A stretch of DNA of 64,000 nucleotides, from positions 72,634 through 136,633 of the forward strand of contig JBFLYN010000002.1 of assembly GCA_040756655.1 (NCBI GenBank), in the 5' to 3' direction. Below, piece after piece: positions 12,577 through 60,335 of the stretch (positions are counted from its first letter, which is position 1; every line of letters starts with the position of its first letter). The notes under the pieces were generated by a model. The model saw only the letters and a program-made list of their open reading frames with translations, searched no databases and was not told the DNA's origin. A program made the position numbers and the translations under genes. The DNA is from Bacillota bacterium. GTDB lineage: Bacteria > Bacillota > Sulfobacillia > UBA8153.

Positions 12577-12589
12577 GAACAACACCTCC

Positions 12590-14167: not shown

Positions 14168-14183
14168 TACTTCGGGGGATGGG

Positions 14184-14699
14184 TCAGAAAACCTCCTCGG
14201 CTAACACGGTGTCTTCTCCGTTCCGCCAGAAATCGCCGCTCCGTCCACCACTCTTCGACACCAGCCGGATGCCGTCCACGACCATGGTGCGGTCCACGGC
14301 CTTACACATGTCGTAGATGGTGAGCGCCGCCACGGCCACGGCCGTCAGTGCTTCCATCTCCACACCCGTCTTTCCGCTGGTAGCTGCCCGGGCTTCGATG
14401 AGCAGGGCCGACCCCGACGAATCGAAGGCAAAGTCCAGTTCCACGGTGTCCAGGGACAGCGGGTGGCACATCGGTATGAGGCGGCCCGTTTCCTTGGCGG
14501 CCAGGATGCCGGCGATACGCGCGGTGGACAGGGCATCACCTTTGGCCAGCGTACCACTGGACAGTCGCTGCAGGGTCTCCCGGTCCATGAGCACCTTCCC
14601 CCTGGCCACTGCCCGGCGCCGGGTCACCGGCTTTTCGCCGACGTCCACCATGCGGGCCCTCCCGCGGCGGTCAAGGTGGGTAAACTCCCCCATATTCAT
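14184..14699 (-). CDS. moaC: Cyclic pyranopterin monophosphate synthase MoaC
   Basis: 171 aa. MVDVGEKPVTRRRAVARG...IPMCHPL is the MoaC signature. Confidence 0.85.
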   Translation of the reverse strand: MNMGEFTHLDRRGRARMVDVGEKPVTRRRAVARGKVLMDRETLQRLSSGTLAKGDALSTARIAGILAAKETGRLIPMCHPLSLDTVELDFAFDSSGSALLIEARAATSGKTGVEMEALTAVAVAALTIYDMCKAVDRTMVVDGIRLVSKSGGRSGDFWRNGEDTVLAEEVF

Positions 14700-15676
14700 C
14701 CCCCCAGGCGGTGCATGCGCCGACGGCGGGCCCGGTCTGGCTGGTTGGCCATGTCATGCCCGGCCGGCTTGGCCAGGATGGCCCGGCGGATGAGATCCCG
14801 GATCTCCTCATCGCTAGCACCGTTTCTTAGCGGTTCCCTCAAATCTACCTCGTCGGGCGAGCCCAGGCAGGGGCTGAGTCCACCGGTGGATGATAGCCTC
14901 AAACGGTTGCAGGCCCCGCAAAAATGCTCGCTCAGTGGCGCGATGAAGCCCACGGTACCTTTGCCACCTTCCAGCCGGTAGTACCGGGCCGGGCCATTCC
15001 CAGTCACTCCCGCCGAGGGGTGCAACCTGCATTGTGCCTCCAGGCGGGCCCGGATCACGGATGCCGGCACAAAGCAGTCCGGCTGCATGTCCCCGGCGTC
15101 GCCCAGCGGCATCAGTTCAATGAAGCGCACGTGCAAGGGGCGTTCCAGGGTGAGGGCGGCAAAGTCTGCCACCTCATGGTCGTTGATGCCCTTCATGACC
15201 ACCATGTTCACCTTTACGGGAACCAGCCCGGCATCCAGGGCTGCATCGATGCCGGCCAGGACCCGGTCTAGGCCGCCCCGGCGGCAGATGGCATCGAACG
15301 TCTCCGGGTTAAGGGTGTCCAGGCTGATGTTGACCCGGGCCAGACCCGCCGCCTTGAGTTCCCGGGCCATTGGGGACAAAAGCTGCCCGTTGGTGGTCAT
15401 GGACACCTCCTCGATGCCAGGCAGGGCAGCTATGCGCCGGATGAACCCCGGCAGTCCCAGGCGCACCAACGGCTCGCCTCCGGTCACTCGCACGCGACCA
15501 ATACCCAGGTCACGAGCACAGCTGACCACTCTTTCCAGCTCCTCGTAACGGAGAACATCATGGTGAGCCCGCGGCAGCACCCCGGTTTCGGGCATACAGT
15601 ACATGCAGCGAAGATTGCAGCGGTCGGTAATGGAAATCCGGATGTAGTCTATGGTGCGACCACAAGGATCCTTCAT
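14696..15676 (-). CDS. moaA: GTP 3',8-cyclase MoaA (radical SAM)
   Basis: IDYIRISITDRCNLRCMYC is the radical-SAM CxxxCxxC motif. Likely start MKDPCGRTIDY at 15676, overlapping the upstream stop by 4 nt. Confidence 0.9.
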   Translation of the reverse strand: MKDPCGRTIDYIRISITDRCNLRCMYCMPETGVLPRAHHDVLRYEELERVVSCARDLGIGRVRVTGGEPLVRLGLPGFIRRIAALPGIEEVSMTTNGQLLSPMARELKAAGLARVNISLDTLNPETFDAICRRGGLDRVLAGIDAALDAGLVPVKVNMVVMKGINDHEVADFAALTLERPLHVRFIELMPLGDAGDMQPDCFVPASVIRARLEAQCRLHPSAGVTGNGPARYYRLEGGKGTVGFIAPLSEHFCGACNRLRLSSTGGLSPCLGSPDEVDLREPLRNGASDEEIRDLIRRAILAKPAGHDMANQPDRARRRRMHRLGG

Positions 15677-17574
15677 GGAGTCACTCGCCTTTCTGCGCCG
15701 GCCCCGGACCAATCATATCCTCCTAGTCGCTCCAGTTCGTGGTGGAAAGTCGGCGACAACGCCGCCTCCAACAAGCGGATCATGCCCGGCAGCTGCCGGT
15801 GCGCAGCCGGGATGGCCAGTTCGTAGCGCTCGGTGGTTACCGGGATGAAGTCCAGGTTGAGCGCCCGGGCGGCAGCCAGGATGCCCAGGCCGCAGGCAGC
15901 CGACCCCGACGCTACCGCCGCCGCCACCCCCATGTGGGTGTACTCCTCCCGCTCGTAGCCCCGGACAGCATGCGGGGAGATGCCCGCCCTTTCTAGGTGG
16001 AAGTCCAAGAGAATGCGGGTACCTGCACCGCGCTGCCGGTTGACCAGCGTCACCTCTTCCCGTGCCAGGTCCTGGAACCCGGCGATGCCCTGCGGGTTCC
16101 CCTTGGGGACCAGGAGTCCCTGCTGGCGGTGGAACAACGTCACCAGCGACACCTCCAGCCCGGGCAATGCCCGTTCCACGTACGGCAGGTTGTAATCGCC
16201 GGTGGCCGGGTCCAGAAGGTGTATACCCGCAGCGTGGGCCTCTCCCCGCCTGAGCGCCAGCAGGCCGGCCAGGCTGCCGGTGTGAGAGGATGAGAGCAAG
16301 TACCCGCGCAAAAGCCCGCCCAGGATCTCCAGGGCCAGGTCATGGCTGCCGCTGAGCACCACCGTGCGCTCCACTTGGGAAAGAGGAGTAAAAAGCTCCA
16401 CCTCCACCTCGGAGCCTTCGGCCAGGCCTTCAGAAAAACGGGTTACCCGGATTACACCGTCGGCGCGCACCAAAGACATGATGAGCCCAGCACCCCGGGC
16501 TATGGGCGTCGCCACCAGCTGGTCGCCGACCCGGCCCACCTTGACCCGCACGAACTCCTCCACTCCCATGGGCGATACTACCCGGCGAGACAGCCGGGCC
16601 CGGCACCTGGCAGCTTCCGGGGGCACTACGCCCAGCAGGCAGGCCACCAGTGGGCGGAGAAAGAGCGTGGCGGTCAGGTACGTTGATACCGGGTAACCGG
16701 GAAGTCCCAGCACCGGCTTGCCCCTCGCTACCCCCAGGATCACCGGCTTGCCGGGGCGGATGGCCACCCCGTGGCAGACCAGTTCTCCCCGGTCCTTTAC
16801 GATACCAGCCACATAGTCCTCGCTCCCGGCCGAAGAACCAGCGTTGATGACCACCACGTCAGCAGCATCCAGCGCCTCGTCCAGGGCCTGGGCAATGAGC
16901 TCCCGGCTGTCCGGCGCTGGGGGAAACCTCCGGGCCACCCCGCCCCAGGATTCCACCAGGGCTGCCAGCACAGGGCCATTGAACTCAGGGATCTGGCCCG
17001 GGGCCAGACCCGGCCCCGGAGCCACGAGCTCTGTGCCCGTGGGAATGATGGCTACTACCGGGCGACGGCGCACCGCTACCTCGGTAATTCCGGCCGCCAG
17101 CAACGCTCCCAGGTCCTCAGCCCTCAGTTGGCGCCCGGATGCCAGCACAGGTTCGGTGGCCACCAGATCCTCGCCCACAGCCCGCACGTGCTGCCACGGT
17201 GAAGCCGGGGCAGTGATCTCATAGCCGTCCGGGGTCTGGTGCACGTCCTCGATCATGATCACGGCGTCACACCCGGGAGGCAGGGGATCACCGGTGTCCA
17301 CCGGAAAGGCCCGGTCCCGGGACAGGGTCACCGGGGTGGTCTCGGACGCGCCGAAACTGTGCCGGGCCGGGAGCGCGATGCCGTCCATGGCACAGGCGTG
17401 GTAATGAGGCGACGAATTGCGGGCCAACACCGTCCCGGCCAGCACTCGCCCGGACGCGCCCGGGACGGGCACGGTTTCTGCCCGGTGCTCGGGCCAGTCC
17501 CGGCCCAGCCTGGTCAACAGGCGTTCCAGGGCCTCTTCCCAGGGAATGGCATCCAGGTAAACCCGGCGCGTCAA
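15673..17574 (-). CDS. moeA: Molybdopterin molybdotransferase MoeA fused to a C-terminal periplasmic-binding-protein-like (PBP_like) domain
   Basis: 633 aa. The N-terminal ~400 aa are MoeA. The C-terminal ~220 aa (SGSHDLALEILGG...LNLDFIPVTTERYELAIP) resemble the PBP-like domain known as a MoeA/ModE fusion partner. Confidence 0.75.
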   Translation of the reverse strand: MTRRVYLDAIPWEEALERLLTRLGRDWPEHRAETVPVPGASGRVLAGTVLARNSSPHYHACAMDGIALPARHSFGASETTPVTLSRDRAFPVDTGDPLPPGCDAVIMIEDVHQTPDGYEITAPASPWQHVRAVGEDLVATEPVLASGRQLRAEDLGALLAAGITEVAVRRRPVVAIIPTGTELVAPGPGLAPGQIPEFNGPVLAALVESWGGVARRFPPAPDSRELIAQALDEALDAADVVVINAGSSAGSEDYVAGIVKDRGELVCHGVAIRPGKPVILGVARGKPVLGLPGYPVSTYLTATLFLRPLVACLLGVVPPEAARCRARLSRRVVSPMGVEEFVRVKVGRVGDQLVATPIARGAGLIMSLVRADGVIRVTRFSEGLAEGSEVEVELFTPLSQVERTVVLSGSHDLALEILGGLLRGYLLSSSHTGSLAGLLALRRGEAHAAGIHLLDPATGDYNLPYVERALPGLEVSLVTLFHRQQGLLVPKGNPQGIAGFQDLAREEVTLVNRQRGAGTRILLDFHLERAGISPHAVRGYEREEYTHMGVAAAVASGSAACGLGILAAARALNLDFIPVTTERYELAIPAAHRQLPGMIRLLEAALSPTFHHELERLGGYDWSGAGAERRVTP

Positions 17575-17590
17575 AGTAGAAGCCTCCGTT

Positions 17591-18817
17591 TCACAGCAAG
17601 ATTACATCCACGGTGTCCCCGGCGCCGTACCCGCCTGTGTCCAGCGGAATGCGGATGAGGCCACTGGCCCGGGCCATGGTACTAATGAGTCCCGACTTCC
17701 CCAGGAGTGGCTGTGCCACGGTGACACCGCTTTCTACCGCCAGGGCACAGGGCACGTATTCCTCCCGCCCCGGCCGCGAAGCCAGGCTGCGGGTTACCGG
17801 GTGCCGCACTACTGGGCGGGGAACGTACCGGGCACCCTGGGCCCACGCTAGAGCCCGGCGCACTAGTACCAGGTACACTACCAGTGCCGAAAGTGGATGC
17901 CCGGGCAGCCCGAATACTGCTTTGCCCCCGATGGCAGCCACCAAGGTGGGTTTCCCCGGCTTAAGCGCCAGGCCGTGACACAGCACGCCGGGACTTCCCG
18001 CCCCGGCGATGACCTGGCCTACCACGTCGCGGCTCCCCACGGAAGAGCCGCCCGACATCAGCACCAGGTCATACTCCAAGGCCTGCTCTAGCCCGGAGCT
18101 GATGGTGCCGGGCTCATCAGCGAAGATACCCAGGTATTTGGCACAAGCACCGTCCTCTTCTGCGGCCAGGGCCAAAGCCGGGCCGTTGATGTCAAACACC
18201 TGGCCTGCGCCCAGCGGTTGCCCGGGCGACACCACTTCGTCTCCGGTTGAAAGCACAGCCACACGTAGCGGCGCCCGGACCGGCACATCGGAAAAGCCAG
18301 TAGCCGCCAGGGCCCCCACGTCGGCGGGACGCAGACGGTGGCCGGCGGCGAAAACACTCTGGCCCTCCACTAAATCCTCTCCCGCCCTTATCACGTTATC
18401 ACCGGGAGCGGCCGGTCGCTGCACCCAGACGGTACCGTCACCGGGTTCTTCAGTGTCTTCGATCATGACCACGGCGTCGCTGCCGGGTGGCAGCATGCCC
18501 CCGGTGGGAATGCGCACGGCCGTGCCCGGTCCCGGAAACACTGGCGCAGGACGGCCCATGGTAACCTCGCCCGCGACCGTCAGAAACGAGGGCATGCTTT
18601 CGCTGGAACCAAAGGTGTCCTGGGCCCGGACAGCAAACCCATCCACGGTGGAGCGCGCAAAAGCCGGCACCGGCAAGGTAGCCAGCAGGTCCCGGGCGGC
18701 CACACGGTTCCGCGCCCGGGCCAGTGGCACGTATTCCTCCTTGGGGACCGCCTCCTCCAGGTGTGAGCGTAGCAATTCCCAGGCTCTTTCAACCGTCACG
18801 ACTTCGAACAACCGCAA
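17591..18817 (-). CDS. moeA: Molybdopterin molybdotransferase MoeA, second stand-alone paralog
   Basis: 408 aa. MoeA N-, middle and C-terminal domains, with GGVSVG-like and GLPGHP motifs. Confidence 0.85.
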   Translation of the reverse strand: MRLFEVVTVERAWELLRSHLEEAVPKEEYVPLARARNRVAARDLLATLPVPAFARSTVDGFAVRAQDTFGSSESMPSFLTVAGEVTMGRPAPVFPGPGTAVRIPTGGMLPPGSDAVVMIEDTEEPGDGTVWVQRPAAPGDNVIRAGEDLVEGQSVFAAGHRLRPADVGALAATGFSDVPVRAPLRVAVLSTGDEVVSPGQPLGAGQVFDINGPALALAAEEDGACAKYLGIFADEPGTISSGLEQALEYDLVLMSGGSSVGSRDVVGQVIAGAGSPGVLCHGLALKPGKPTLVAAIGGKAVFGLPGHPLSALVVYLVLVRRALAWAQGARYVPRPVVRHPVTRSLASRPGREEYVPCALAVESGVTVAQPLLGKSGLISTMARASGLIRIPLDTGGYGAGDTVDVILL

Positions 18818-20128: not shown

Positions 20129-21052
20129 TCATTGTGTTCCGTTATGCTGCCCACACAGCTTTGCCAGCATTAGGAACGCACCCACGGCAATATTGTGGCC
20201 GGTACTACCCCCCATCCGGCTAAGTTTCTGCAATGCCTGGTTACACGGCCGTCCGCGCAACAACGACAGCACATAATCCCTGACCGGCTCGGGAGTTAGC
20301 CCCCTTTGGCCCATCTCCAGCATGTGGGCTCCCAGGGGTGTGGTCCTCTGCTTGATGTCCTCTGGGTAAGGCATAGCCCGGTACTTGCAGTTTTTGCTGC
20401 GTCTGTAGTAATGCAGGGCGATGAGCGCACCGTGAATGAGGTCATCGCCAGTTGGGGTAGATCCATCACCCAAGCCAGCCAACATCCCGCAACAAGCCTG
20501 GAAACCCATGCGGTCTGAGCGCAAAAGCGCATGCGTAAGCTGGGGAAAATAGGTCTTGATTTGCTCCCCGAAATAGCCTTGGGTGTCGTTGCTTCCCAGG
20601 AGTACAGAACAGGTATGTGACGCCGTCAGGTTCTTCAACTGGGTCGAAAATGAGGTTAGCGACGATAGCCAGCCTTCGCGGACCATAGTGACCTCGGCTG
20701 GCGGCGCAAAAGATACGTAGGGCTCACCGAGGGCAAGAATAAGTTCTTCTTTGCCACTGAGAAAGACCACGGAGTCAGGCAAGTACCAGCCGCGTGTCGT
20801 GGAGGTTAGGAAGGCTTTAACTTCCCAAAGCGTCGACAAGGAGAGTCCTACCGTCGCCGGACCACGGACTACGCCCGGGCCAGCAATCATGAGCAGGTGT
20901 GGCCAACCCTCAACCGCCAAGTTGGCTACCTGATCATGAACGGATACTACGCGAAATCTTGCCGGCTCCCTGTACTCTACAAGGTCAGCGGCAACCCATT
21001 CAGCTTTACGAAGACACCACACATTCGTTCTACCCTCTCCGTCATGAGCCAT
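20129..21052 (-). CDS. DUF2877/AllH-like hypothetical protein (a family usually paired with carbamate kinase-like genes)
   Basis: 307 aa, with a GSTPTGDDLIHGALIAL motif. The assignment is tentative and rests mostly on the adjacent carbamate-kinase remnant. Confidence 0.35.
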   Translation of the reverse strand: MAHDGEGRTNVWCLRKAEWVAADLVEYREPARFRVVSVHDQVANLAVEGWPHLLMIAGPGVVRGPATVGLSLSTLWEVKAFLTSTTRGWYLPDSVVFLSGKEELILALGEPYVSFAPPAEVTMVREGWLSSLTSFSTQLKNLTASHTCSVLLGSNDTQGYFGEQIKTYFPQLTHALLRSDRMGFQACCGMLAGLGDGSTPTGDDLIHGALIALHYYRRSKNCKYRAMPYPEDIKQRTTPLGAHMLEMGQRGLTPEPVRDYVLSLLRGRPCNQALQKLSRMGGSTGHNIAVGAFLMLAKLCGQHNGTQ

Positions 21053-21089
21053 TTTTGCCGGAGCAGCTCAACAGCGGGCCTCGCAGCGA

Positions 21090-21500
21090 CTACGGGGTAA
21101 TCGTGGTGCCATCCTTGCCTGCTACAGCATCCAGCATGCCATCAAGAGACGTTATGATCGATCTGTTCTCGGTGTCCCGGACAAACTCTATCGCCGCCTG
21201 GATCTTCGGCGCCAGGCTTCCTAAGCCAAAGTGGCCATCCTTCAGGTAGGTCTTTGTCTGATCGACAGTCGCACTCGTGAGATCCCTTTCGCCGGGTAGA
21301 CCGAAGTGTAACTTAACGTGCTTTACGTCCGTAAGGATCAGGAATAGGTTCACACCAAGGTCTCTGGCTAACCTGGAGCTGGCTAAATCCTTATCGATGA
21401 CAGCCTCTATGTCCATAGGTGCGTCCATCTCGCTGAACAACAGGTATACCGCCCCCGCCTGCTGCTATGACCACACCTCCACTTTCACAGCAATGGTAGA
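21090..21500 (-). pseudogene. arcC: Carbamate kinase remnant: C-terminal third only, with an internal frameshift
   Basis: The 116-aa ORF IEAVIDKDLASSRLARDLGVNLFLILTDV...GSLAPKIQAAIEFV matches the carbamate kinase C-terminus. Upstream in another frame is ...VVIAAGGGGIPVVQRDG (CK motif ASGGGGIPV). The N-terminal two-thirds are absent. Confidence 0.7.
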
Positions 21501-22257: not shown

Positions 22258-22410
22258 ATGGCTAACAGGAGGTTATCCATGCGCAAAGTCCGTGAGATGT
22301 TGCGGTTGGCTTGGAACATGAGCCTGAGCATCCGCCAGGTAGCACGCACTTGCGGCGTCTCTCACAGCACGGTAAGCGAGCTGTTACGTCAGGCCACGCA
22401 GGCGGGGCTA
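22258..22410 (+). mobile_element. IS21-family IstA transposase N-terminal (HTH) fragment, ~50-70 aa only
   Basis: MANRRLSMRKVREMLRLAWNMSLSIRQVARTCGVSHSTVSELLRQATQAGLSWLLPAEWDDAVLEDRLY matches the IstA N-terminus MLSMRKIREVLRL...LSxRQIA...SHSTV. It has a good RBS. The reading frame then runs into the convergent ABC ATPase gene. Confidence 0.5.
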
Positions 22411-23344
22411 TCTTGGCTGCTGCCCGCAGAGTGGGATGACGCCGTCCTGGAAGACCGGCTCTACCGGCAGCATCACCAAAGGATAGTGGAGACCCGCGGC
22501 CAGCAGGATCTCCTCAAGGCTCACCCGGTTCACTCTCAGGTCTGCGGCCCCGGTAGCCTGCAGGCGGGATAACCATTCCTGCGAGTAACACCCCGTAGTC
22601 CCGACAAAGCTCAGACCGTCAGTCTGCAGGCTACGGAAAAGCGGCCGTAACTCCTCGGGCGCACCCCGGACTCCATTTGCCCTCCGCCAGCGGTCAAGTA
22701 AGGACTCCTTGTCTGCGTGAACTGCGATGACGCCCTCTTGGAGTATGGCGACGTAGTCAGCGACCTGCTCGACGTCATGAATGATGTGGGAAGAGAAGAT
22801 GACGGTCCTTCCTTCGTCCCGGATCACTCCTGAGATCTGCTCAAGTAGTTCCCGCCGGACTAGCGGGTCGAGGCCAGAGGTCGGTTCGTCCAAGATCAGC
22901 AATCGTGGACGGTGGGAGAGAGCCATGACCAGGGCCAGCTTCATCCTCATGCCCTTGGACATCTGCCGTACCGTCTTCTTAGAAGAACCTCGCAAGGTAC
23001 TCCTGGTACAGCCGGGCGTCCCATGTAGGATAGTAAGAGCTGACCAGTCGCCCCAGCCCGGACGGGGTCATGTCCTCGTAGAAGTTCGGGGTTTCGCTAA
23101 CGTATCCCACGCGACGTTTGATCTCCAGCTCCTGCCCGGGCTGCTCGAGTCCCAGCACCTCAACCCGGCCAGCCTCGGGGTAAGTGAGGTTGAGCATGAT
23201 CCGGATGGTGGTAGACTTCCCGGCTCCATTGGGACCCACCAGTCCCAGTACGTAGCCCTGTTCGACCAGGAACTCATCCAGGCTTAGCGTGAAGGCTCCG
23301 TAGCGTTTGCGGACTCCTTCCATGCGCACTACAACCCTAGACAT
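22408..23344 (-). pseudogene. ABC transporter ATP-binding protein (YtrB-like, GntR-associated), split by a frameshift near 22980-22995
   Basis: The N-terminal half is ORF 22979..23344 (Walker A GPNGAGKST). The C-terminal half is ORF 22408..22995 (signature LSKGMRMKL, Walker B LLILDEPTSGLD, H-loop). The two are in different frames. No cognate permease lies downstream, where IS fragments sit instead. Confidence 0.7.
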
Positions 23345-23723
23345 GCATATATCCCCCCGCCTTCATGGCCTGCTCCAGGAGTGCACGCAACGACTCCGGC
23401 CCTACGCCCAGTCGGCGAGCCTGCTCCACCACAGCGGCCAGTTGAGCACCGATTTCCTCATGCGTCAGATCCCTGGGCGATCTGGATAGCTCGCTGACAA
23501 AGGTGCCTCGCCCAGGGCGTGTCACGATGTACCCGTCCCGCTCTAGCTCCTGGTAGGCGCGTTGAGTGGTGATCACGCTGGTTACCAGGTCGGCCGCGAG
23601 CTGGCGGATGGACGGCAAGGGGTCCCCGGGCGATACCTCCCCTCTGAGGATCGCAGCCCGTACTTGCTCGATGATCTGCTGGTAGAGGGGTTGCCGGTCG
23701 GAGCTATCCAGCACGATGAGCAT
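23337..23723 (-). CDS. GntR-family transcriptional regulator (YtrA-like short C-terminal type)
   Basis: 128 aa. The winged HTH PLPSIRQLAADLVTSVITTQRAYQELERDGYIVTRPGRGTFV is present. Confidence 0.85.
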   Translation of the reverse strand: MLIVLDSSDRQPLYQQIIEQVRAAILRGEVSPGDPLPSIRQLAADLVTSVITTQRAYQELERDGYIVTRPGRGTFVSELSRSPRDLTHEEIGAQLAAVVEQARRLGVGPESLRALLEQAMKAGGYMHV

Positions 23724-34849: not shown

Positions 34850-35638
34850 TCATGCCGGTGCGTCCACGTCGATGCGATAAGGGTGGGTGTAAACATTGAA
34901 GCGTTCTCCCCGGCAAAACCCGACCAGCGTAATACCGGCCTCCTTAGCCATGCTCACCGCCCGCTCGGTGGGAGCGGACCGGGACAGCACCACCGGCACG
35001 GCCAGGCGAGAGGCCTTGATGAGCATGTCTGAGCTTACGCGCCCGCTGACGGCCAGCACGTCGTAACTCCCCACTTGGCCCTGGAAGAGAGCGTACCCGG
35101 CCACCTTATCCACTGCGTTGTGTCGCCCGATATCCTCGCGTAGCACCTGGAAGCCTTCCTTGGCGGGCCGGGCCGCCGCGGCCACGTGGGTGCCACCGGT
35201 GGTCCGGAAAACCGGGCACTCCACTTGCAGCCGTCGCGCTAGCTCCAGCAGGCGGGTCCTGGCCACGGTACCCCCATGCGATACCCGGGCCGGACCTGCC
35301 ATAAGCGGTGCCGGTCGTCCTCCACACCCGGTCCAGGTGGCCTCGGTGCGCACGACCTTCCCAGGGTCTGGGTCCGTGGTCTCCACGTCGGCTACGCCCA
35401 CTTCCTCAGAGATGGTCATCCGGTCAACCTGCTCCAGGCGGTCGATGAAGCCGGCAGTCAGCAGAAAACCGGCCACCAGTTCCTCCAAGTGCTGAGGGGT
35501 ACACACCAGCGTGGCCAGTCGGCGCCCATGCCACTGGATGGCCAAATCGTATTCGGCCACCACCAAGTCTTCTATCTCCTCCACGGCGGAACCCCGCACC
35601 GCCCGGAGCTTGGTAGGGAGGACCGGGTCGGTCATCAC
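34850..35638 (-). CDS. fdhD: Formate dehydrogenase accessory sulfurtransferase FdhD
   Basis: 262 aa. WTGCGG and GGTHVAAAARP...GRHNAVDK are FdhD signatures. Confidence 0.85.
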   Translation of the reverse strand: MMTDPVLPTKLRAVRGSAVEEIEDLVVAEYDLAIQWHGRRLATLVCTPQHLEELVAGFLLTAGFIDRLEQVDRMTISEEVGVADVETTDPDPGKVVRTEATWTGCGGRPAPLMAGPARVSHGGTVARTRLLELARRLQVECPVFRTTGGTHVAAAARPAKEGFQVLREDIGRHNAVDKVAGYALFQGQVGSYDVLAVSGRVSSDMLIKASRLAVPVVLSRSAPTERAVSMAKEAGITLVGFCRGERFNVYTHPYRIDVDAPA

Positions 35639-36108
35639 GCGCCGGCCTGTTTCTTCAAGTCGTTGACCAGCCTTTCTACTTTACCCGGGGCGAGGTGGCC
35701 GTAGGTCTTCTCGTTGACCATAACTGCTGGGGCCAGCCCGCAAGCACCCGGGCAAGCCACGCGTTCCAGGGTAAAGAGCATGTCGGGAGTGGTTTCGCCT
35801 GCCCCAACGTTCCGCTTCCTGCTGAGCACGTTGAAAAGCTGCTCTCCTCCGCGCACGTGACAGGCCGTATCCAGGCACAGCCGGATCACGTGCTTGCCCC
35901 GGGGCTTCAAGTGGAACTGGGAGTAGAAGGTTATTACCCCAAACACCCTGCTCAGCGGCACCCGCAGCGATGTCGATATGGATCGGAGATTCTCCTGGGA
36001 AAGGTACCCGAACTCCTTCTCGGTCTTCTGGAGGACCGCGATGAGCGCCAACGCCCGGGCGCCGTGCCGCTGGACGATGGTATTGAGTCGTTCTTGGGCC
36101 ATGGCCAT
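35635..36108 (-). CDS. nuoE: NuoE/HndA-like [2Fe-2S] thioredoxin-fold subunit
   Basis: 157 aa. Cys ligands are in RLCLDTACHVRG ... ACPGACGLAPAVMVNE. Confidence 0.8.
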   Translation of the reverse strand: MAMAQERLNTIVQRHGARALALIAVLQKTEKEFGYLSQENLRSISTSLRVPLSRVFGVITFYSQFHLKPRGKHVIRLCLDTACHVRGGEQLFNVLSRKRNVGAGETTPDMLFTLERVACPGACGLAPAVMVNEKTYGHLAPGKVERLVNDLKKQAGA

Positions 36109-36121
36109 GGTGGTTCCTCCT

Positions 36122-36571
36122 CTAGGACGTCGGCGTTTTTTCCAACCACACGGCGCACACTTTCAGTTGCGGTATCTTGGCCACCGGATCCAGCGCCGGG
36201 TTGGTCAGGATGTTGGCAGCACTCTCTGCGAAGTGGAACGGCATGAACACCACGCGCCGTCCGATCCCCGGGGTCACCATGACCCGGGTAGATACCCGGC
36301 CGCGACGGGACACTGAAGTGATGAACTCGCCGTCCTCTACCCCCAGCTCAACGGCGGTAGCGGGGTGTACCTGAACAAAGCCTTCTGGCGCTATGGCGTC
36401 CAGCCCCTTGGCCCGGCGGCTCATGGAGCTGGTATGGAAGTGGTACAGGATCCGGCCGGTAGTCACGATGTAACCAAAAAGGTCCTGGCCCAAAAGCCCG
36501 TGCTCGCAGGCAGCTGCCACGGCCTTGTGCAACCTGGACACAGCCAGCAGGTACTCGGCTCGCATATACAT
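36122..36571 (-). pseudogene. fdhA: Chimeric remnant: a NuoF/FdhB-like internal segment fused in-frame to the C-terminal MGD-binding domain of the formate dehydrogenase alpha subunit
   Basis: YMRAEYLLAVSRLHKAVAAACEHGLLGQDLFG is a NuoF-like mid region. It is followed directly by EFITSVSRRGRVSTRVMVTPGIGRRVVFMPFHFAESAANILTNPALDPVAKIPQLKVCAVWLEK, the FdhA C-terminus. About 1,100 codons of fdhB and fdhA are missing. Confidence 0.65.
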
Positions 36572-37396
36572 GTACCCCTGCTGGGCGCCGCGATGGCCAC
36601 ACCCTCCACCACCCGGTGCGAGTCGCCCTCCATGACGCCCCGGTCCATGAAAGCGCCCGGGGCACCCTCGTCACCGTTGCAGATTAGATACTTGGTTTCT
36701 CCTGGGCTGGAACGTGCCAGTCGCCACTTGGTACCGGTGGGGAATCCGCCGCCACCCCGGCGCGCAGTCCCGACGTTGCGATTTCGGCTATGACGTCCTC
36801 AGGCGTCATCTCCAGCAGATAGCGAGCCAGTGCGTGGTAGCCGCCGTGACCCAGGGCATCTTCCAGATCCTCCGGGTCCAGGTGACCGCAGCCGGAAAGG
36901 GCTACCCGGACCTGCTCGCTGTAGAAGGGCACCTTCTCCTCGGTATGAATATGCCCCCGCTGCCGTCGCTAAACAGCAGGCGGTCCACAGTCTGGTTAGC
37001 GACGGCAGCGGCGACGATGTCCTTTGCATCCTTCGCCTTGACGTTCACGTAGAAAAACCCCTGGGGTTCGACCCTGACCAGCGGTCCCTAGCCGGCGGTT
37101 ACTCCAGGTGCCTGACCCGTCTCCAGCAGGCGCACCAGCTCGTCATGCACCTCCGCTGCACCAGACGCCAGGCAACCAGTACCCGCGCACACCAGGAGCC
37201 TTGCCCCCAAAGACTTCTGCAGGCCCTGCCGGGCTGCGGCCCGGGCCTTGAGTTCGTCCAGTGTTGGTATGGAATTCGGCATGTCTTGACCTCCTGCTTC
37301 GTAGCGCCGGTCGGTCGGGGAAATGGCGGCACCGGGACTTGGTCCAACCAATGCTATTAGCCACTCGACTGTACTTTTCCTGCTCAAGACGGCCAT
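36463..37396 (-). pseudogene. fdhB: FdhB/HndC (NuoF-like) beta subunit N-terminal region, broken by at least two frameshifts and an in-frame TAG
   Basis: ORF 37088..37396 (LDELKARAAARQGL...LLVCAGTGCLASGAAEVHDELVRL) ends at TAG. Homology continues after the stop (GPLVRVEPQGFFYVNVKAKDAKDIVAAAV). It then shifts frame into ORF 36684..36932 (VPFYSEQVRVALSGCGHLDPEDLE...) and again into ORF 36463..36648 (AFMDRGVMEGDSHRVVEGVAIAA). Confidence 0.65.
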
Positions 37397-37468: not shown

Positions 37469-37666
37469 ATGCCCAAGAAGCTTTACCGGTCACGGACACT
37501 GCGCATGGTATCGGGTGTGTGTGGAGGCATTGCCGAGTACTTCAACGTGGATGAGACCCTGATCCGCCTTGTTACGGCCTTTGGCATCATCGCCTCGGGC
37601 ATCGTGCCGGGCGTCCTCTTGTACTTTGCCGCCTCCATCATCGTGCCCGAGGCGCCTAAGGTGTGA
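37469..37666 (+). CDS. PspC-domain small membrane protein
   Basis: 65 aa. RSRTLRMVSGVCGGIAEYFNVDETLIRL is the PspC domain signature. The RBS is GGGAGGGG. Confidence 0.7.
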   Translation: MPKKLYRSRTLRMVSGVCGGIAEYFNVDETLIRLVTAFGIIASGIVPGVLLYFAASIIVPEAPKV

Positions 37667-37973
37667 CGGCCTGATCCTGTCGGACTTGGCTGAGCACGTG
37701 CCCGCCCGGATGGGTGGGCATGCTTGTTTGCGGGGCCGTTTGCCATGATTCCCATTTGTGCTGAATTTCCCTTATGTGGAGGAATTGGGAGGGCCGACGA
37801 GAAATAGACAGGTGGCTTCTTTGTCTGTCACCGGCTGCCCAGCACGTATAGGGAAACCAGCCGCGGGCCGGGCATGCCGGGTCAATGGGCAATGCTAACT
37901 GAAGATGATCGAAGCCGTCGAAAACCGCCCTCTCCCGGGCGGAGAAATGCGAAGAAAGCAAGGAGGACTGCGC

Positions 37974-39737
37974 ATGCCACTGGATCCAACAAAACACCCT
38001 GACTGGCAAATCGCCGAGGCGGCCGAGCCCAACATGAAGACGGTCTACCAGCTGGCCGAACAACTGGGACTGGAAAACCGCGAACTCCTACCTCACGGTC
38101 ACTACATCGCTAAGGTGGATTTCAAGGCCGTCCTGGAACGGCTGGCCGACCGGCCCGACGGCAAGTACATCGATGTCACCGCCATCACTCCCACGCCGCT
38201 GGGCGAAGGGAAATCCACGTCCACCATGGGCCTTACCCAGGGTATGGGCAAACGCGGCAAGCGGGTCATCGCCACCATCAGACAGCCATCAGGCGGGCCC
38301 ACCATGAACGTAAAAGGATCGGCAGCCGGTGGCGGGCTTTCCCAGTGCATCCCCCTGACCCCGTTTTCCTTGGGGCTTACCGGCGATATCAATGCTATCA
38401 TGAATGCCCACAACCTGGCCATGGTAGCGTTGACCTCCCGGCTCCAGCACGAGGCCAACTATGGAGACAAGTTCCTCACCGAGCGGGGTCTTAAGCGACT
38501 CAACATCGACCCGCGCAACGTGGAGATGAAGTGGATCATCGACTTTTGCGCCCAAGCCCTGAGAAACATAGTCATCGGCATTGGTGGCAAGATGGATGGC
38601 TTCATGATGCAGTCGGGGTTTGCCATCGCCGTGTCCTCGGAGGTCATGGCCATCCTGTCTGTGGCCAAGGACCTGAAGGACTTCCGGGAGCGCATGGGCC
38701 GCATTGTAGTAGCCTACGATAAGAAAGGTTCCCCCATCACCACCAGCGACCTGGAAGTGGATGGGGCCATGACTGCCTGGATGGTTGAGGCACTCAACCC
38801 CAACCTCTTGCAGACCATCGAAGGCCAGCCCGTTTTCGTGCATGCGGGCCCGTTTGCCAACATTGCCATTGGGCAGTCCTCCATCATCGCCGACCGGGTG
38901 GCGCTCAAGCTGGGCGACTACGTGATTACCGAGTCTGGCTTTGCCGCAGATATCGGGTTTGAGAAGTTTTGGAACCTCAAGTGCCGCATGTCGGGTCTAA
39001 AGCCCCATGCTGCAGTGCTGGTGGCCACGGTCCGGGCCCTAAAGGCCCACGGCGGCGCCCCGCTCCCGGTGCCCGGCAAGCCGCTGGACCGCGCCTACTC
39101 GGAAGAGCATGTGGAATGGGTGGAGAAGGGCTGCGAGAACCTGGTTCACTGTATCAACATCATCAAGCAGTCTGGTGTCAACCCGGTGGTATGCATCAAC
39201 CACTTTTACACTGACAGCGACAATGAGATCCAGGCCGTGCGCCGCGCTGCAGAGGCGGCGGGAGCCCGGGTGGCCCTTTCCAAGCACTGGCTGCAGGGCG
39301 GGGATGGGGCCCTGGAACTGGCCGACGCTGTGGTCGACGCAGCCAACGAACCCAATGACTTCAAGTTCCTCTACGGGTTGGAGACCCCGCTCCGTGACCG
39401 GATCAACCTCATCGCATCGAAGGTGTATGGAGCCGACGGTGTAGAGTATTCGCCCGAGGCGCTGGAGAAGGCCAAGCGCATGGAGAAGGATCCCGAGATC
39501 CAGAAGCTGGGCACCTGCATGGTCAAGACCCACCTTAGCCTGTCGGACAACCCGGCCCTCAAGGGCGTGCCCAAGGGCTGGAAGCTCTTCGTCCGCGATA
39601 TTCTCACCTACAAGGGCGCGGGCTTCATAGTGCCCGTGGCCGGTACTATCAGCCTCATGCCGGGCACGTCTTCCGATCCCGCCTATCGTCGCATCGACGT
39701 AGACGTAGATACCGGGAAGGTAAAAGGCTTGTTCTAA
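37974..39737 (+). CDS. fhs: Formate--tetrahydrofolate ligase
   Basis: The FTHFS family signatures ([28 protein letters not shown]) are present. The start is [18 protein letters not shown], preceded by AAGGAGG. The ORF's upstream extension is unlikely. Confidence 0.9.
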
Positions 39738-39945: not shown

Positions 39946-40353
39946 TAAGTACCTCGCCCCCCGTGGACCTCAAAGATGCGGCCCAGCTACCATCGCTTGG
40001 AGCACCGGGTGCGCGCGCACGTTCTCCTGTGTATGCTGGCCTACTATATGGAATGGCATCTACGCCAGGCGCTGGCCCACACCGCCTCACCGGTGGCTCC
40101 GGCCCGCCGTTCCGCCCGGGCGGGAGCCAAAGCGCGCCATCAGCGGCTGGAGGACGGGACGCCCGTGCACAGTTTCCAGACGCTGTTGAAGGACCTGGCT
40201 ACGCTGGCCCGCCATCGCGTGCAACCCCAACTGCCTGGGGTGCCCGCCTTTGACATGCTCACCCGGCCTACTCCTCAACAGGACGGGCCTTGGCAGTACT
40301 TGGTGTCAAGCTGGACAGCAGGGTTGTACCCAGTACCAAATAAGTCCGGTTGA
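39946..40353 (+). mobile_element. IS1634/IS4-family DDE transposase C-terminal fragment
   Basis: ...YHRLEHRVRAHVLLCMLAYYMEWHLRQAL matches the conserved C-terminal block of IS1634-type transposases (ERVRAHLLICFLAL). No N-terminal or DDE core is present. Confidence 0.5.
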
Positions 40354-40602: not shown

Positions 40603-41660
40603 GTGATAGACCAAGTCTATGCCCGCCTAGAGGAATCCTCGCCGTCCCGGGGCGAGTTCTACTTTCTGGCCAGCGAGATCTTGGCGCTGATGGGAGACGC
40701 GCACATCCACATCCGTATGGACCAGCACGACCGGGTCTTAGACCTCCCGGTGGTGTGGCTAGCGGGCGGACTGTTTGTCTGTGCACCACGACCCGAGTTA
40801 AAGCCGGGCGACTGTGTCATCACCATCGGAGACATGGATGTAGCACAGCTACTGGCGCAGCTTGCCCGGTGCGTGCCGGCGAAAAACCACTACTGGGTGA
40901 GAGTTCAGGGGGAAAACCTCCTCATCCGCCAGGCCTTCTTGGAACACCTGGGGGTGCTGGAGAGGGACGGGTGCGTCCAGGTGGTAGTAGAGAGAGACGG
41001 CAAAAGGCTCACCCTCTACCGCCCGTTCCTGGAGGCCATGCCCTGGATCCCCCGGGAGTGGCAACGTCACCACTGGGTTGGGTGGCGCATTGATGAAGAA
41101 CATTCCCTCGGCATCTTCCACCTGGACCGGTGCGAACCCAAGCCGAGTACGAACAGGCTTTGCGGCGGTTTTTCCAGGAAGTGGCCCGCGCGGGCATCAA
41201 GAACGTCGTGGTGGATCTACGGTACAACACGGGTGGTAACTCCCGGGTGGCCGACCTGTTCATGCAATACCTGCCCGTTGACTCGTACCTCAGTTTTGGC
41301 AGCACCATCCGGTACAGCCCGGAAGCGCGTACTCAGCGCAAGTACCTGCAGGCCAGAGGTCATGTCACCCACCCGCCGGGGCGCAGGTCCAACCAGGTGC
41401 TCAAGGACCTGGTCTTTGCGGGTAACCTCTATGTGCTCACATCACCGCAGACCTTCAGCAGCGGCAAGTGGTTTGCCGTGCTCCTAAAGGACAACGGCCT
41501 GGCTACCCTGGTCGGGGAGCCCACAGGCAACGCCCCATCGGCTTCTGGGGACATCCTGAGCTTTAACCTTCCCCACAGCGGCTGCGCCTTCATAGTCTCT
41601 CACAAGCAGTTTGTGCGCCCTTCAGGTGACACCACGGAAAGATGTGTCTCCCCGATGTAG
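40603..41660 (+). pseudogene. S41-family C-terminal processing peptidase-like gene, frameshifted near 41130 and probably 5'-truncated
   Basis: The C-terminal ORF has VVDLRYNTGGNSRVADLF and LTSPQTFSSGKWFAVLLKDNGLATLVGEPTGN (S41 catalytic region). The upstream ORF 40603..41487 is in a different frame, with a junction at ...FHLDRCEP / RTQAEYEQALRRFF. Confidence 0.5.
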
Positions 41661-49287: not shown

Positions 49288-50661
49288 TTAGCACACCACT
49301 TCCACGTTGTTCTCGGCCACCGTCACCACGGTGCCATCTAAGAGCTCCACGTCCACGGTGTAGAGGCTGATCTCTGTTTCTAAACGCACGCGACTGCCCA
49401 ACACCGACACCACCCGGCCGTACTGGCCAAAGTGAGTAAGACGGGTGATCCTCACCATAGCCCCGGGCACCAGTTCTCCGCCAGCGCGCGCTACCTGGAC
49501 ATCCGCGTCAGGTAGGTCCGGGGAGATCCCTTCCCCCAGGGGGATGATGACCTCCGGCCGGACGGCTCCCGCCCGGATCTGGGTGCGGCCGTTAACCGAC
49601 GCGATGGCACCCTCGTAGGCGCATAAGAGGTTATAGGCACGCTGGGACATGGGCATGACTCCGAATCCCCCGGTGATTACCACGGTGAGGGGGAGCTCTT
49701 CTTGGCCGGTGAGCCCTACCATGACCTCCCGGCCCAAAAGCTTTACCACGTCCAGGTGGTTGATCCCGCCCGAGATGAGCCCGGTGGCCTTGACCTCCAG
49801 GGCGCGGTTCATAGCCTCCAAGGACGCCAGGGCCCCACCGAATACCACGCATCCCTCGTGAGACGGCAGGATATCCGCGGCTTCCAGGACCCGGTCGGGG
49901 CCGGCAACTCGCGCCAAGGGCCCATAAGCCTCGCCACCCAGGCCGAATAAGCCTTCGATATAGGCCGCGGCAGTAGAGACCTCGGCGCTGTCGCCCGGGT
50001 TGACTGCGGTTACCTCGCCCCTGATGTACGCATCTACCTCGGTGGGACGGGCGGGTCGCACAATGGTGATGGCGCCGGTGCGGGTGCAGATCTTCTCCAC
50101 CACTCCACTGACGGGAGCATACGCGCAGTCCCACCCCAGGGGCGACGGTGCCGCGGCCAGGATCTGGCCTTGCTTTACCTCGTCTCCCTCACGGCAGTGA
50201 GCGTAGGTCCTCAACATGCGCGGCCAAACGTCCAGCTGCTTGGCCGCCGAGACCACGACCACCGGCCGGGCAGAGCGCCCGTCCTCCCGGATGAGTACGC
50301 GACCGTGTAGCCGGGAGATGAACTCCACGACTCCCGTGACCGGCGACTTAACCACGACGACTTCACCCAGGAAACCCTTGGTGTAACGGGCAATGATGTC
50401 ACCACCAGTGACCTGGTCGCCCACCTGCACGGTCATGACCAGGTCCATGAGATCGGGCCCGGCCTTTTCCCTGGGCACCATGAGCGCCCGCATCACGTCC
50501 ACAAAGTAAGGGGCGCCGGGCAGCAGGTCGGTGCGGGCCACTATGGTCGAAGGTTCTACTGTCGAACCGGCACTGACCAGCACGTCACCGGGCAATGGCA
50601 ACCGGCGCTGTCTGCTGACCCGGGCCTTCTCCATGGTCCTTACCATGAGGTTCTCGGTCAA
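49288..50661 (-). CDS. Uncharacterised partner protein A1, translationally coupled to the MutL/GlmL-like ATPase. It has repeated barrel-sandwich (lipoyl/biotinyl-like) motifs and a KOW-like C-terminus.
   Basis: 457 aa with no recognised family. Motifs: VQVGDQVTGGDIIARY, CREGDEVKQGQILAAAP, GGFGVMPMSQRAYNLL...RTQIRAGAVRPEVIIPLG. It is a paralog of 59221..60333. The start abuts the upstream stop. Confidence 0.5.
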   Translation of the reverse strand: MTENLMVRTMEKARVSRQRRLPLPGDVLVSAGSTVEPSTIVARTDLLPGAPYFVDVMRALMVPREKAGPDLMDLVMTVQVGDQVTGGDIIARYTKGFLGEVVVVKSPVTGVVEFISRLHGRVLIREDGRSARPVVVVSAAKQLDVWPRMLRTYAHCREGDEVKQGQILAAAPSPLGWDCAYAPVSGVVEKICTRTGAITIVRPARPTEVDAYIRGEVTAVNPGDSAEVSTAAAYIEGLFGLGGEAYGPLARVAGPDRVLEAADILPSHEGCVVFGGALASLEAMNRALEVKATGLISGGINHLDVVKLLGREVMVGLTGQEELPLTVVITGGFGVMPMSQRAYNLLCAYEGAIASVNGRTQIRAGAVRPEVIIPLGEGISPDLPDADVQVARAGGELVPGAMVRITRLTHFGQYGRVVSVLGSRVRLETEISLYTVDVELLDGTVVTVAENNVEVVC

Positions 50662-52470
50662 CTAGACCACCTCCCGGCCGGCATACTTCCGGAGAGCGCT
50701 TTCAGGGTAGGCATGCATGGCCAGCCACCAGTCCACGAGAGCTCGCCGTCGTAGAGCTGGATCCTTAGGTAGCTCCAGCGGGCGACCCCGTCCGTCCAGG
50801 ATGAGCCCTACCTCTCCCCCGCTCACGTTGACTCTGAACGGCTGTTTGCGACCCCTCCCGGCGTCCCACCCGGAGCGAGGTATCACCTCTAGTTCCATCT
50901 CTTCCCCGGGTCCTAGCGGGACCAGCGCCATTTGACCAAAGACCAGATCCAGCTCCTGTCCGGGCATAGACACCCGGGCGATGGACTGACCCGGTCGCCC
51001 GGTGCCCGCCGGGGCCAACACCGTCCCCAGGGGAATGAGGCATTCCTGCCAAAGGGTGTCCAGCGCCTCCTTGGGCCTGAGGTCCAATAGCGCGCCAAGC
51101 TGGGGCAACATGAACACGCTGTCTACGAAAAGCCGGCACACTCCCACCGGAGCCAGAGCGTCCAGGAGCAAGAGAGCGGCCTGGGCCCGGCGCGGGGCGT
51201 GGGAAAGCACCCCTCCGGAGCCGATCACGGCACCCACTTCCCTCATGTCCACCAGGGGTTGCCCGGTGGACGTCTGGTCGAATACCCGGTCTGCCGTCCT
51301 CCTCTGGCGCACGCCCTTGAGCGTCACCGCCAGGGAGTTGTGATGCTCAAATGAGAGCCTGAGTGCATCCCGGGCCGCGGCGTGCTCCAGCAAAAGCTCG
51401 TCCATGGTCTCTGGCAAGGTCGTGGGCCTGATCACCTTGTTGGAATACCAGTTCCGCAAATCTCCCTCGGAGATGTAAAAGGGCAGCCAGGACTGCACCC
51501 GGTCCAGACTGGCTTCCTTCAGGACATTGCCCAGGCTGTAGCTCATGCCCAGGTTGGCGCTGACGGTGCGGTGGAACCGGCCACTGGCCACCGAAAACAC
51601 ATCGGTGGTGGCGCCCCCGATATCCAGGGCCACCACGTCCGTATCCAGGTACGCTGCAACCTGCTGCACCATCTTGCCCACGGCCATGGGAGTGGGCTGC
51701 AAGTGCCCGCCGGTCCAGTCCAGCAGGGTCTGGTAGCCCGGGGCCTGCGCCATGACATGCTCCAGGAAGACCCGGTGGATCTCTTCCCGGGCAGGCTGCA
51801 ACACCTCTTTTTCCAGGGTGGGCCTGATGTTCTCCACAAAAGAAAGCAGCATGCAGTCTCCCAGGGTGGAGGCGACAAATTCCCGGGCGTGCACGTTTCC
51901 GGCATAGATTACCGGCAGCCGAAAACCGCTGCCGAACCTTGGTTCAGGACTGGCAGCAGCTAGGTATTCGGCCACGGCACCGACGTGACTGGGCAGGCCT
52001 TCGTCGGTTCCTCCCGTAAAGAGGATCATGTCGGGCCGCAGTTCTCGTACCCTCTGGATGCGCTCCACCACCAGGCGGGCATCATCCATGGAGATCACGT
52101 CCATGACGATGGCCCCGGCTCCGAGTGCCGCCCGCTGGGCACTTTCGGCGGTCAAGTTCCGGACTAGCCCGGTAACTAGCATCTGCAGGCCGCCTCCGGC
52201 CGACGATGTGGCCAAAAAGAGGTCGGCGCCCCGGGATGACGTGCCCGGCACCACGAGGCGGTCTCCATCCAGGAGTGGGCGACCGGTCTCGTTGGCAAGC
52301 CTGCTCATGGCGTTTTTCAGCCCGATCATCACGTCCAGAAAGGGTTTTTCCACGGTGGTTGGCGCCGCCGCGCGCCCGCGCAGCCGGTACCCCTGGCCAT
52401 GGTACTCCAGCAGGATGGCTTTGGTCGTAGTGCTCCCCACATCAGCGGCAAGGATCGTCCTGATCTCCAC
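50662..52470 (-). CDS. MutL/GlmL-family protein A2 (ASKHA-fold ATPase, hydantoinase-A-like; the family of the glutamate mutase component L), long 602-aa form
   Basis: The N-terminal phosphate-1 motif ILAADVGSTTTKAIL, VALDIGGATTDVFSV and VIGSGGVLSHAP are present. It is ~140 aa longer than canonical GlmL and is a paralog of 60336..62153. Confidence 0.7.
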   Translation of the reverse strand: MEIRTILAADVGSTTTKAILLEYHGQGYRLRGRAAAPTTVEKPFLDVMIGLKNAMSRLANETGRPLLDGDRLVVPGTSSRGADLFLATSSAGGGLQMLVTGLVRNLTAESAQRAALGAGAIVMDVISMDDARLVVERIQRVRELRPDMILFTGGTDEGLPSHVGAVAEYLAAASPEPRFGSGFRLPVIYAGNVHAREFVASTLGDCMLLSFVENIRPTLEKEVLQPAREEIHRVFLEHVMAQAPGYQTLLDWTGGHLQPTPMAVGKMVQQVAAYLDTDVVALDIGGATTDVFSVASGRFHRTVSANLGMSYSLGNVLKEASLDRVQSWLPFYISEGDLRNWYSNKVIRPTTLPETMDELLLEHAAARDALRLSFEHHNSLAVTLKGVRQRRTADRVFDQTSTGQPLVDMREVGAVIGSGGVLSHAPRRAQAALLLLDALAPVGVCRLFVDSVFMLPQLGALLDLRPKEALDTLWQECLIPLGTVLAPAGTGRPGQSIARVSMPGQELDLVFGQMALVPLGPGEEMELEVIPRSGWDAGRGRKQPFRVNVSGGEVGLILDGRGRPLELPKDPALRRRALVDWWLAMHAYPESALRKYAGREVV

Positions 52471-60333: not shown

Positions 60334-60335
60334 GC

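Follow-up and report, generated by a model that had tools for sequence, protein, structure and literature searches.

Remains of a three-subunit formate dehydrogenase operon in a metagenome-assembled genome of the Bacillota

We analysed a stretch of 64,000 nucleotides (the window) from a Bacillota bacterium (GenBank assembly GCA_040756655.1, contig JBFLYN010000002.1, positions 72,634 to 136,633 of the forward strand; positions below are counted from its first letter). The subject is a minus-strand locus that carries the remains of a formate dehydrogenase (FDH). In the direction of transcription, the locus consists of the beginning of a NuoF/HydB/BfuB-like flavoprotein gene (B'), the end of the gene for the catalytic subunit FdhA (A'), a nuoE/hydC/bfuC-like gene and fdhD (Table 1). 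An initial annotation, made from the letters alone, had described it as a pseudogenised FDH operon of the NAD (nicotinamide adenine dinucleotide) type. The pseudogenisation was borne out by domain searches, structure alignments, tblastn and the existence of intact syntenic relatives.

The flavoprotein remnant B' still has an AGGAGG Shine-Dalgarno sequence 7 nt ahead of its ATG. When intact B homologues (599 to 630 aa) were used as tblastn queries, they matched four collinear pieces, together covering B residues ~1-283. The joined translation (272 aa) aligned without a break to residues 6-266 of 597 of 7t2r_B (E 2.4e-65), the B subunit of the bifurcating NiFe-hydrogenase. It also matched HydB of bifurcating FeFe-hydrogenases, the matches to both kinds of bifurcating HydB ranging from E 1e-65 to 1e-55. 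Pfam found the Nuo51 flavin mononucleotide (FMN) domain (Complex1_51K) in the joined translation over profile positions 1-96 of 150 only (E 1.3e-22). Residues ~27-110 aligned to the N-terminal domain of 7t2r_B and 7q4v_B. Within this thioredoxin-like 2Fe-2S domain, the first Cys pair is kept (VCAGTGC). At the second pair, the in-frame TAG reported in the initial annotation was found, and both cysteines are absent: the window reads ETGQAPGVTAG*GP (the asterisk marks the stop), compared with ETGCHGMCEMGP in 7t2r_B. Further on, the frame is broken three times, where at least two frameshifts had been claimed before; their presence was confirmed and their number was corrected. According to the translation, tblastn and a direct reading of the sequence, the first falls between ...SDGSGG and HIHTEEKVPFY.... 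The second lies within the FMN-site motif GLRGRGGGGFPTG, which is read as GLRAGVAADS, and its exact position was inferred from the conserved motif. The third separates VVEGVAIAA from GAQQGYMYMRAEY.

The last B-derived stretch, ...MYMRAEYLLAVSRLHKAVAAACEHGLLGQDLFG, reads in frame into YIVTTGRILYHFHT...KIPQLKVCAVWLEKTPTS and the stop codon of FdhA. The resulting open reading frame (ORF) of 149 aa had been proposed to join the middle of a NuoF-like subunit to the end of FdhA, and Pfam, structure alignments and tblastn all agreed with this composition. Residues 35-140 form a complete Molydop_binding domain (PF01568, positions 2-110 of 110, E 9.7e-29), the 'cap' domain. When compared with solved structures, the ORF aligned only from residue ~30 onwards, and only to the terminal stretch of an FDH catalytic subunit (561-673 of 674, 592-707 of 743 and 862-976 of 989), while residues 1-33 continue the NuoF/HydB-like sequence of B'. 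Similarly, intact FdhA homologues (894-1055 aa) used as tblastn queries matched with their last ~115 residues only, at 36478-36137, and no further B or A fragment was found in the window by tblastn with intact homologues, including four FdhA. PF01568 was the only FdhA domain detected by Pfam and tblastn in the window; the 4Fe-4S domain, the active-site Cys/Sec-His and the other pterin-binding domains were not found. As for the FDH alpha-subunit family TIGR01591, the 149-aa ORF scored 89.6 bits against a cut-off of 666 and covered profile positions 559-670 of 672 only. The NCBI annotation lists the ORF as MEW6522296.1, a 147-aa 'molybdopterin dinucleotide binding domain-containing protein'. The claim that nearly all of fdhA is deleted and that its rest is joined in frame to the broken NuoF-like gene was thus upheld; the last ~116 codons of fdhA are left.

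Table 1. Positions of the FDH remnant, its lesions and the retained genes in the window.
Feature	Position	Strand	Remarks
B', NuoF/HydB/BfuB-like flavoprotein pseudogene	37282-36473	-	first ~270 codons, split over three frames
B' tblastn pieces	37204-36965, 36950-36759, 36780-36574, 36586-36476	-	frames -1, -3, -2, -1
In-frame TAG in the N-terminal thioredoxin-like 2Fe-2S domain of B'	37088-37090	-	
Frameshift 1 in B'	36954-36958	-	C5 run (coding-strand G5), frame -1 to -3
Frameshift 2 in B'	~36759-36762	-	apparent 1-nt deletion, frame -3 to -2
Frameshift 3 in B'	~36588-36600	-	small deletion, about three codons plus 1 nt, frame -2 to -1
149-aa chimeric ORF	36571-36122	-	residues 1-33 from the middle of B, residues 34-149 the last ~116 residues of FdhA
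Deletion junction	~36473/36472	-	between the G33 codon (36475-36473) and the Y34 codon (36472-36470)
A', fdhA remnant	36472-36122	-	C-terminal Molydop_binding 'cap' domain and stop codon only
nuoE/hydC/bfuC-like, 157 aa	36108-35635	-	intact ORF; PF01257, E 1.5e-46, positions 2-145 of 145
fdhD, FDH accessory sulfurtransferase, 262 aa	35638-34850	-	intact
pspC	37469-37666		between B' and the divergent fhs
fhs, formate-tetrahydrofolate ligase	37905-39737	+	full length; PF01268, E 2e-228, positions 3-556 of 556
Molybdenum cofactor genes: moeA, moeA-PBP, moaA, moaC, amidohydrolase, moaB/mogA	12079-18817	-	full length, syntenic with relatives

Comparison with close relatives, a check that had been suggested with the initial annotation, showed that four related loci (L084 to L087), obtained from a large protein collection, carry an intact fdhA at the same position. 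The intact order in L086 and L087 is B (614 aa, with the FMN domain, SLBB, NADH_4Fe-4S and C-terminal ferredoxin domains, the latter being Fer4 families at 555-613 in L086), FdhA (903 aa, with Fer2_4, NuoG-type clusters, Molybdop_Fe4S4, Molybdopterin and Molydop_binding), a NuoE-like protein (167 aa) and FdhD. Next in order come thiolase, 3-hydroxyacyl-CoA dehydrogenase, enoyl-CoA hydratase, the molybdenum cofactor (Moco) genes moeA, moeA-PBP, moaA, moaC and moaB, and then hprt and guaA. The minus strand of the window has the same gene series from 37282 down to 9958. Because the intact syntenic loci L086 and L087 show the order B-A-C-fdhD, this is the native order in the lineage of the window, and the deletion lies inside it. 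The distance from the start of B to the stop of A is 4,572 bp in L086 versus 1,161 bp in the window. Relative to L086, B residues 284-614, a 15-bp spacer and A residues 1 to ~780 are lost, amounting to ~3.35 kb. The loss of about 3.3 kb stated in the initial annotation therefore held; that it occurred in a single deletion is plausible.

In the nearer relative, represented by L084 and L085, fdhA is intact directly upstream of the nuoE-like gene, which is followed by fdhD. The amino acid identities between the window and these loci are 61% for the NuoE-like protein, 62% for FdhD and 69% for the C terminus of FdhA, the latter being the identity between A' and the intact L084 FdhA. When L084 was compared with the window by blastn, the homology started at the junction (L084:1054 corresponding to window 36463). 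By positional orthology, A' descends from fdhA. We also considered whether the remnant could come from NasC (assimilatory nitrate reductase), since the 149-aa ORF scored 88.5 bits for NasC and 89.6 bits for Fdh-alpha. This reading was rejected because the intact syntenic gene is a TIGR01591 equivalog, with 926 bits for L086 FdhA against the 666 cut-off, and fdhD adjoins it. The active-site residue of L086 FdhA is Cys (RLCHAS).

More distant sequences were of less use. A scan of species-representative genomes with the nuoE-like protein gave 80 loci, all with the order C-B(-A); the source species was not among them, the relatives share at most 52% identity, and they served only as intact references. 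Many distant relatives of this FDH (L008, L010 and L029 among the loci) combine the order NuoE, NuoF, FdhA with an in-frame TGA in fdhA that probably encodes selenocysteine; in L010, fhs stands directly after fdhA. The lineage of the window differs from such relatives by its Cys active site and its B-A-C-fdhD order. The GuaA protein of the window is 80% identical to that of a metagenomic relative (L088) and ~65% identical to Moorella, Thermanaeromonas and Desulfotomaculia sequences. L088 could not be used for the FDH comparison, as its contig stops short of the FDH position; it is not of the same lineage as L084.

We asked whether the 149-aa ORF could instead be a bona fide stand-alone 'cap' domain protein, of the FwdD/FmdD-like or the Hdr/Flp-side type, that has its own function. 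Molydop_binding proteins of 149-178 aa that stand alone (P0056 and P0096) do exist in conserved contexts, the domain in the ORF is complete and shows no substitution between two strains (see below), and the Prokaryotic Genome Annotation Pipeline (PGAP) annotates the ORF as a protein. However, zero substitutions in 450 bp are expected by chance at a divergence of 0.33%, as only ~1.5 substitutions would be expected. The frameshifted NuoF-like gene reads on in frame through the first 33 residues. Among 97 database matches, only self sequences covered more than 85% of the ORF, and these N-terminal residues were matched by none but the ORF itself. The domain sits exactly at the 3' end of fdhA in the syntenic relatives, and no adjacent partner with other pterin-binding domains was found. 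FwdD/FmdD and other stand-alone Molydop_binding proteins resemble the ORF in size (~130-180 aa) and in having a single PF01568, but FwdD/FmdD-type proteins are encoded by conserved genes with partner subunits, whereas the ORF, by its position, is what remains of fdhA and has an N terminus derived from NuoF. Membership of a small protein family, which the initial annotation had named as the finding that would overturn the fusion remnant, therefore fails on the self-only N terminus and on the L084 homology that starts at the junction. We consider a bona fide protein of this kind very improbable. It is just as improbable that the ORF, with its 33 B-derived residues ahead of the FdhA cap, is expressed and has been maintained as a new Molydop_binding protein that stands alone, for example one binding or chaperoning bis-molybdopterin guanine dinucleotide together with FdhD. 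If this were true, the locus would offer a snapshot of how small FwdD-like cap domain proteins arise by deletion in full-length molybdoenzymes.

In several samples, small Molydop_binding proteins were encoded in conserved neighbourhoods with HdrA/HdrD-like and FlpD (MvhD-like) genes (L089 6001-6537, L090 975-1511 and L091 2337-2786). The proteins of this Hdr/FlpD-side kind, namely P0096 (178 aa, with an N-terminal Fer2 and a Molydop_binding domain) and P0056 (149 aa), look like genuine proteins and not like remnants.

An artefact, in which the true operon is intact and the lesions are errors or a mis-join, could be argued from the source record being a metagenome-assembled genome (MAG), from one frameshift lying in a 5-base homopolymer and from several further broken genes in the window. 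We therefore compared the lesions with Logan short-read assemblies from two runs. Over 12,349 bp, the contig SRR29635773_5326 did not differ from the window (100% identity). The contig SRR22388167_228849 (L083) covered 38188-34584 (3,605 bp) with 99.67% identity, 12 substitutions and no gaps, and none of the substitutions touches a lesion. This slightly diverged strain has the same stop codon, all three frameshifts and the junction. The junction is a continuous in-frame sequence, and synteny is normal on both sides of it. Since the lesions are shared by two independent assemblies, a sequencing or assembly error is excluded, and since they are shared by a diverged strain, they are older than the split of the two populations, in both of which they are fixed. 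Misassembly, which the initial annotation had given as another possible refutation, thus finds no support in these data, and an artefact is extremely unlikely.

The second strain also allowed us to compare the two genes downstream of the junction. The nuoE-like gene of the window keeps all four 2Fe-2S cysteines (C78, C83, C119 and C123). Its counterpart (L083 2081-2554) differs by V12I, R97K and C119W and by one synonymous change, and C119W removes one of the four 2Fe-2S ligands. FdhD scored 190.8 bits on TIGR00129 (cut-off 140.9, profile positions 2-235 of 237), and the Cys of its TGCGG loop is conserved in L084. Between the two strains, fdhD shows three codon differences, all of them synonymous. 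The ratio of nonsynonymous to synonymous differences is therefore 3:1 for the nuoE-like gene and 0:3 for fdhD (7 variable codons, Fisher p ~0.11). On this comparison, the nuoE-like gene is probably decaying too, and fdhD looks still constrained. Drift of the nuoE-like gene would make sense because its only known partner, B, is dead, and a NuoE-like protein has no role without a NuoF-like partner. The initial annotation had listed fdhD, nuoE and fhs as retained; this is correct for the full-length ORFs, with nuoE retained only as an open frame.

Continued function of the locus by programmed frameshifts, stop-codon read-through or a split enzyme with parts elsewhere has nothing specific in its favour other than the still open fdhD and nuoE-like genes, and it is effectively refuted because 3.35 kb is missing: three frameshifts in different directions plus TAG read-through would be needed, the 64 kb lacks the C-terminal half of the FMN/NADH domain of B together with its SLBB domain and all its 4Fe-4S sites, and from A it lacks the Fe-S, active-site and pterin-binding domains, and an Rfam scan of 30-42 kb found no riboswitch (e.g., for Moco) or other RNA family.

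Taken together, we regard the locus as what is left of a defunct operon for a cytoplasmic molybdo/tungstopterin formate dehydrogenase of three subunits (probability about 0.93). No catalytically competent product can come from it. Gene decay of the usual kind, with no new mechanism, has turned a member of a known enzyme family into an ordinary pseudogene. Several points count against this conclusion or weaken parts of it. The chimeric ORF keeps an ATG, a purine-rich upstream stretch and a PGAP gene call, so that the 149-aa product might be translated. The evidence for the lesions comes from assembled contigs, and heteroplasmy or minor intact alleles could be present in the populations. The numbers behind the selection contrast are small, and C119W comes from a single Logan contig. 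Finally, the nearest relative with the locus has ~71% DNA identity, at which the ancestral sequence and the deletion mechanism are not reconstructable; a search for microhomology at the junction was dropped for the same reason, as the ancestral breakpoints cannot be restored.

The course of decay can be described as follows, the order of the lesions and a single deletion event being our inference. The ancestor had its genes in the order B, A, C and fdhD. B was an FMN flavoprotein of the NuoF/HydB type that began with a 2Fe-2S domain and ended in ferredoxin domains, A was an FdhA with NuoG-like Fe-S domains, and C was a NuoE-like 2Fe-2S subunit. A deletion of ~3.35 kb took away 55% of B on its C-terminal side and fdhA up to codon ~780. 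With these parts went the active-site Cys-His, the pterin-binding domains and all Fe-S domains. The two stumps came to be joined in frame by chance. The B stump also gained the three frameshifts and the stop codon and lost the Cys pair, and the orphaned nuoE-like gene, while still open, looks unconstrained.

To place the lost enzyme among known systems, we compared the intact relatives and the remnants with described FDH types. In true Bfu (HydABC-like) enzymes, the B subunit has the extra clusters B2-B5, which are missing in non-bifurcating homologues such as FdsGBA of R. capsulatus; in 'Type 1 Fdh-Bfu', the NuoG-like A subunit and the pterin site form one fused protein (PMC9304861; Schut et al. 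2022). The same three subunits as in Type 1 Fdh-Bfu (e.g., that of Carboxydothermus hydrogenoformans, itself a prediction) are found in the intact L086 and L087. Their BfuB-like protein has the N-terminal 2Fe-2S domain, the FMN/NADH site, NADH_4Fe-4S and a C-terminal 2x[4Fe-4S], their BfuA-like protein is a fusion of NuoG-type Fe-S domains and pterin catalytic domains, and their BfuC-like protein is a NuoE. The C-terminal [4Fe-4S] ferredoxin domains of BfuB are deleted in the window, and their presence in L086 B marks them as an ancestral feature. B' retains the N-terminal 2Fe-2S domain of BfuB and matches bifurcating HydB structures best. The BfuC-like protein of the window has the four 2Fe-2S Cys ligands that characterise Bfu, with Trp at C119 in L083. 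What sets the window apart from Type 1 Fdh-Bfu is that the enzyme is destroyed and that the order is B-A-C-fdhD versus the common C-B-A. Judged from these domains, the ancestral enzyme had a HydABC/Bfu-like 'Type 1 Fdh-Bfu' architecture and not the FdsGBA NAD-type one. Enzymes of this architecture are predicted to couple formate/CO2 with NAD(P) and ferredoxin, and the ancestral enzyme may have been a bifurcating one.

The label 'NAD-type' in the initial annotation was imprecise, since B' has an N-terminal thioredoxin-like domain and matches HydB types far above FdsB. FdsGBACD (Rhodobacter capsulatus, 6TGA; Cupriavidus necator, 6VW7) likewise consists of a NuoE-like subunit, a NuoF-like subunit, an FdhA with NuoG-like domains and the FdhD-family protein FdsC. 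However, FdsB has neither the extra Fe-S clusters nor a thioredoxin-like domain at its N terminus (PMC9304861), and the gene order is G-B-A in FdsGBA as opposed to B-A-C in the window lineage. The matches of B' to FdsB (6vw7_B and 6tg9_B; E ~1e-36) were ~30 orders weaker than those to HydB and were confined to query residues 115-272. As far as the account of Wang et al. (2013) given in PMC9304861 goes, HylABC-FdhF2 of Gottschalkia (Clostridium) acidurici is an electron-bifurcating, cytoplasmic, NAD/ferredoxin-linked enzyme that combines a NuoF-like/NuoE-like core with a pterin FDH. Its pterin site is on a separate FdhF2 (Type 3) with selenocysteine and tungsten, whereas the window lineage has the NuoG-like fusion and Cys.

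Outside the FDH genes proper, the Moco genes are full length, so the cell presumably still makes the pterin cofactor. Together with the apparent constraint on fdhD, they suggest that FdhD serves another molybdoenzyme or an FDH encoded elsewhere in the genome. Between moaC and moaB lies a gene for a 525-aa amidohydrolase of the Amidohydro_3 type (12590-14167, minus strand), which is also present in L088 and absent from L086. A promoter/terminator scan found no promoter-like site at the FDH locus.

Seen from its metabolism, this uncultured Bacillota lineage has lost a Bfu-type FDH that its relatives kept, whereas Moco synthesis, fhs and fdhD are retained. The formate/CO2 node may thus have changed, in that formate might be imported, made by another route or handled by a second FDH. 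In the public record, the nuoE-like protein is named 'NAD(P)H-dependent oxidoreductase subunit E'. With such product names, automated pathway calls could credit the MAG with FDH parts that are already lost, and the practical value of the finding lies in the annotation and metabolic reconstruction of this MAG. A literature search on the run and protein accessions and on FDH pseudogenes in Wood-Ljungdahl organisms found nothing relevant.

The FDH operon is one of several decayed loci in this genome, because genes or fragments of an ABC-transporter ATPase, an S41 peptidase, a carbamate-kinase-like protein and a transposase-like protein are also broken. The ABC ATPase is split into two overlapping ORFs at 22408-23344 (minus strand), of 121 aa (ABC_tran positions 6-75) and 195 aa (positions 100-137); a GntR-like gene (23337-23723) lies upstream of it, and the ATPase gene is probably a further pseudogene caused by a frameshift. 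At 40603-41660 (plus strand), a frameshift splits a peptidase S41-like gene: the ORF at 40603-41487 has a shifted tail with no Pfam match, and the ORF at 41130-41660 covers Peptidase_S41 profile positions 13-155 of 165. Between fhs and this pseudogene, a 125-aa ORF (39976-40353, plus strand) with no Pfam match reads like the C-terminal piece of an insertion sequence transposase. This fragment may mark a rearrangement that brought fhs beside the FDH locus; the genes upstream of B in L086 differ from those of the window.

A patch of low GC content (0.55 versus ~0.63) was found at 20-22 kb, with genes at 20129-21440 (minus strand). It contains a 116-aa fragment with the C-terminal end only of the amino acid/carbamate kinase family (positions 149-233 of 234), and an AllH-like gene (oxamate carbamoyltransferase subunit) adjoins it. 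The patch may be a decayed or acquired remnant of purine/allantoin degradation. Finally, two paralogous gene pairs lie at 49288-52470 and 59221-62153 (minus strand), each encoding a ~600-aa PF13941 'MutL' (glutamate-mutase-reactivase-like) protein and, after it, a protein with a weak RnfC_N/barrel-sandwich match. Such a MutL and RnfC_N-like pair is also found upstream of the intact FDH operon in L086.

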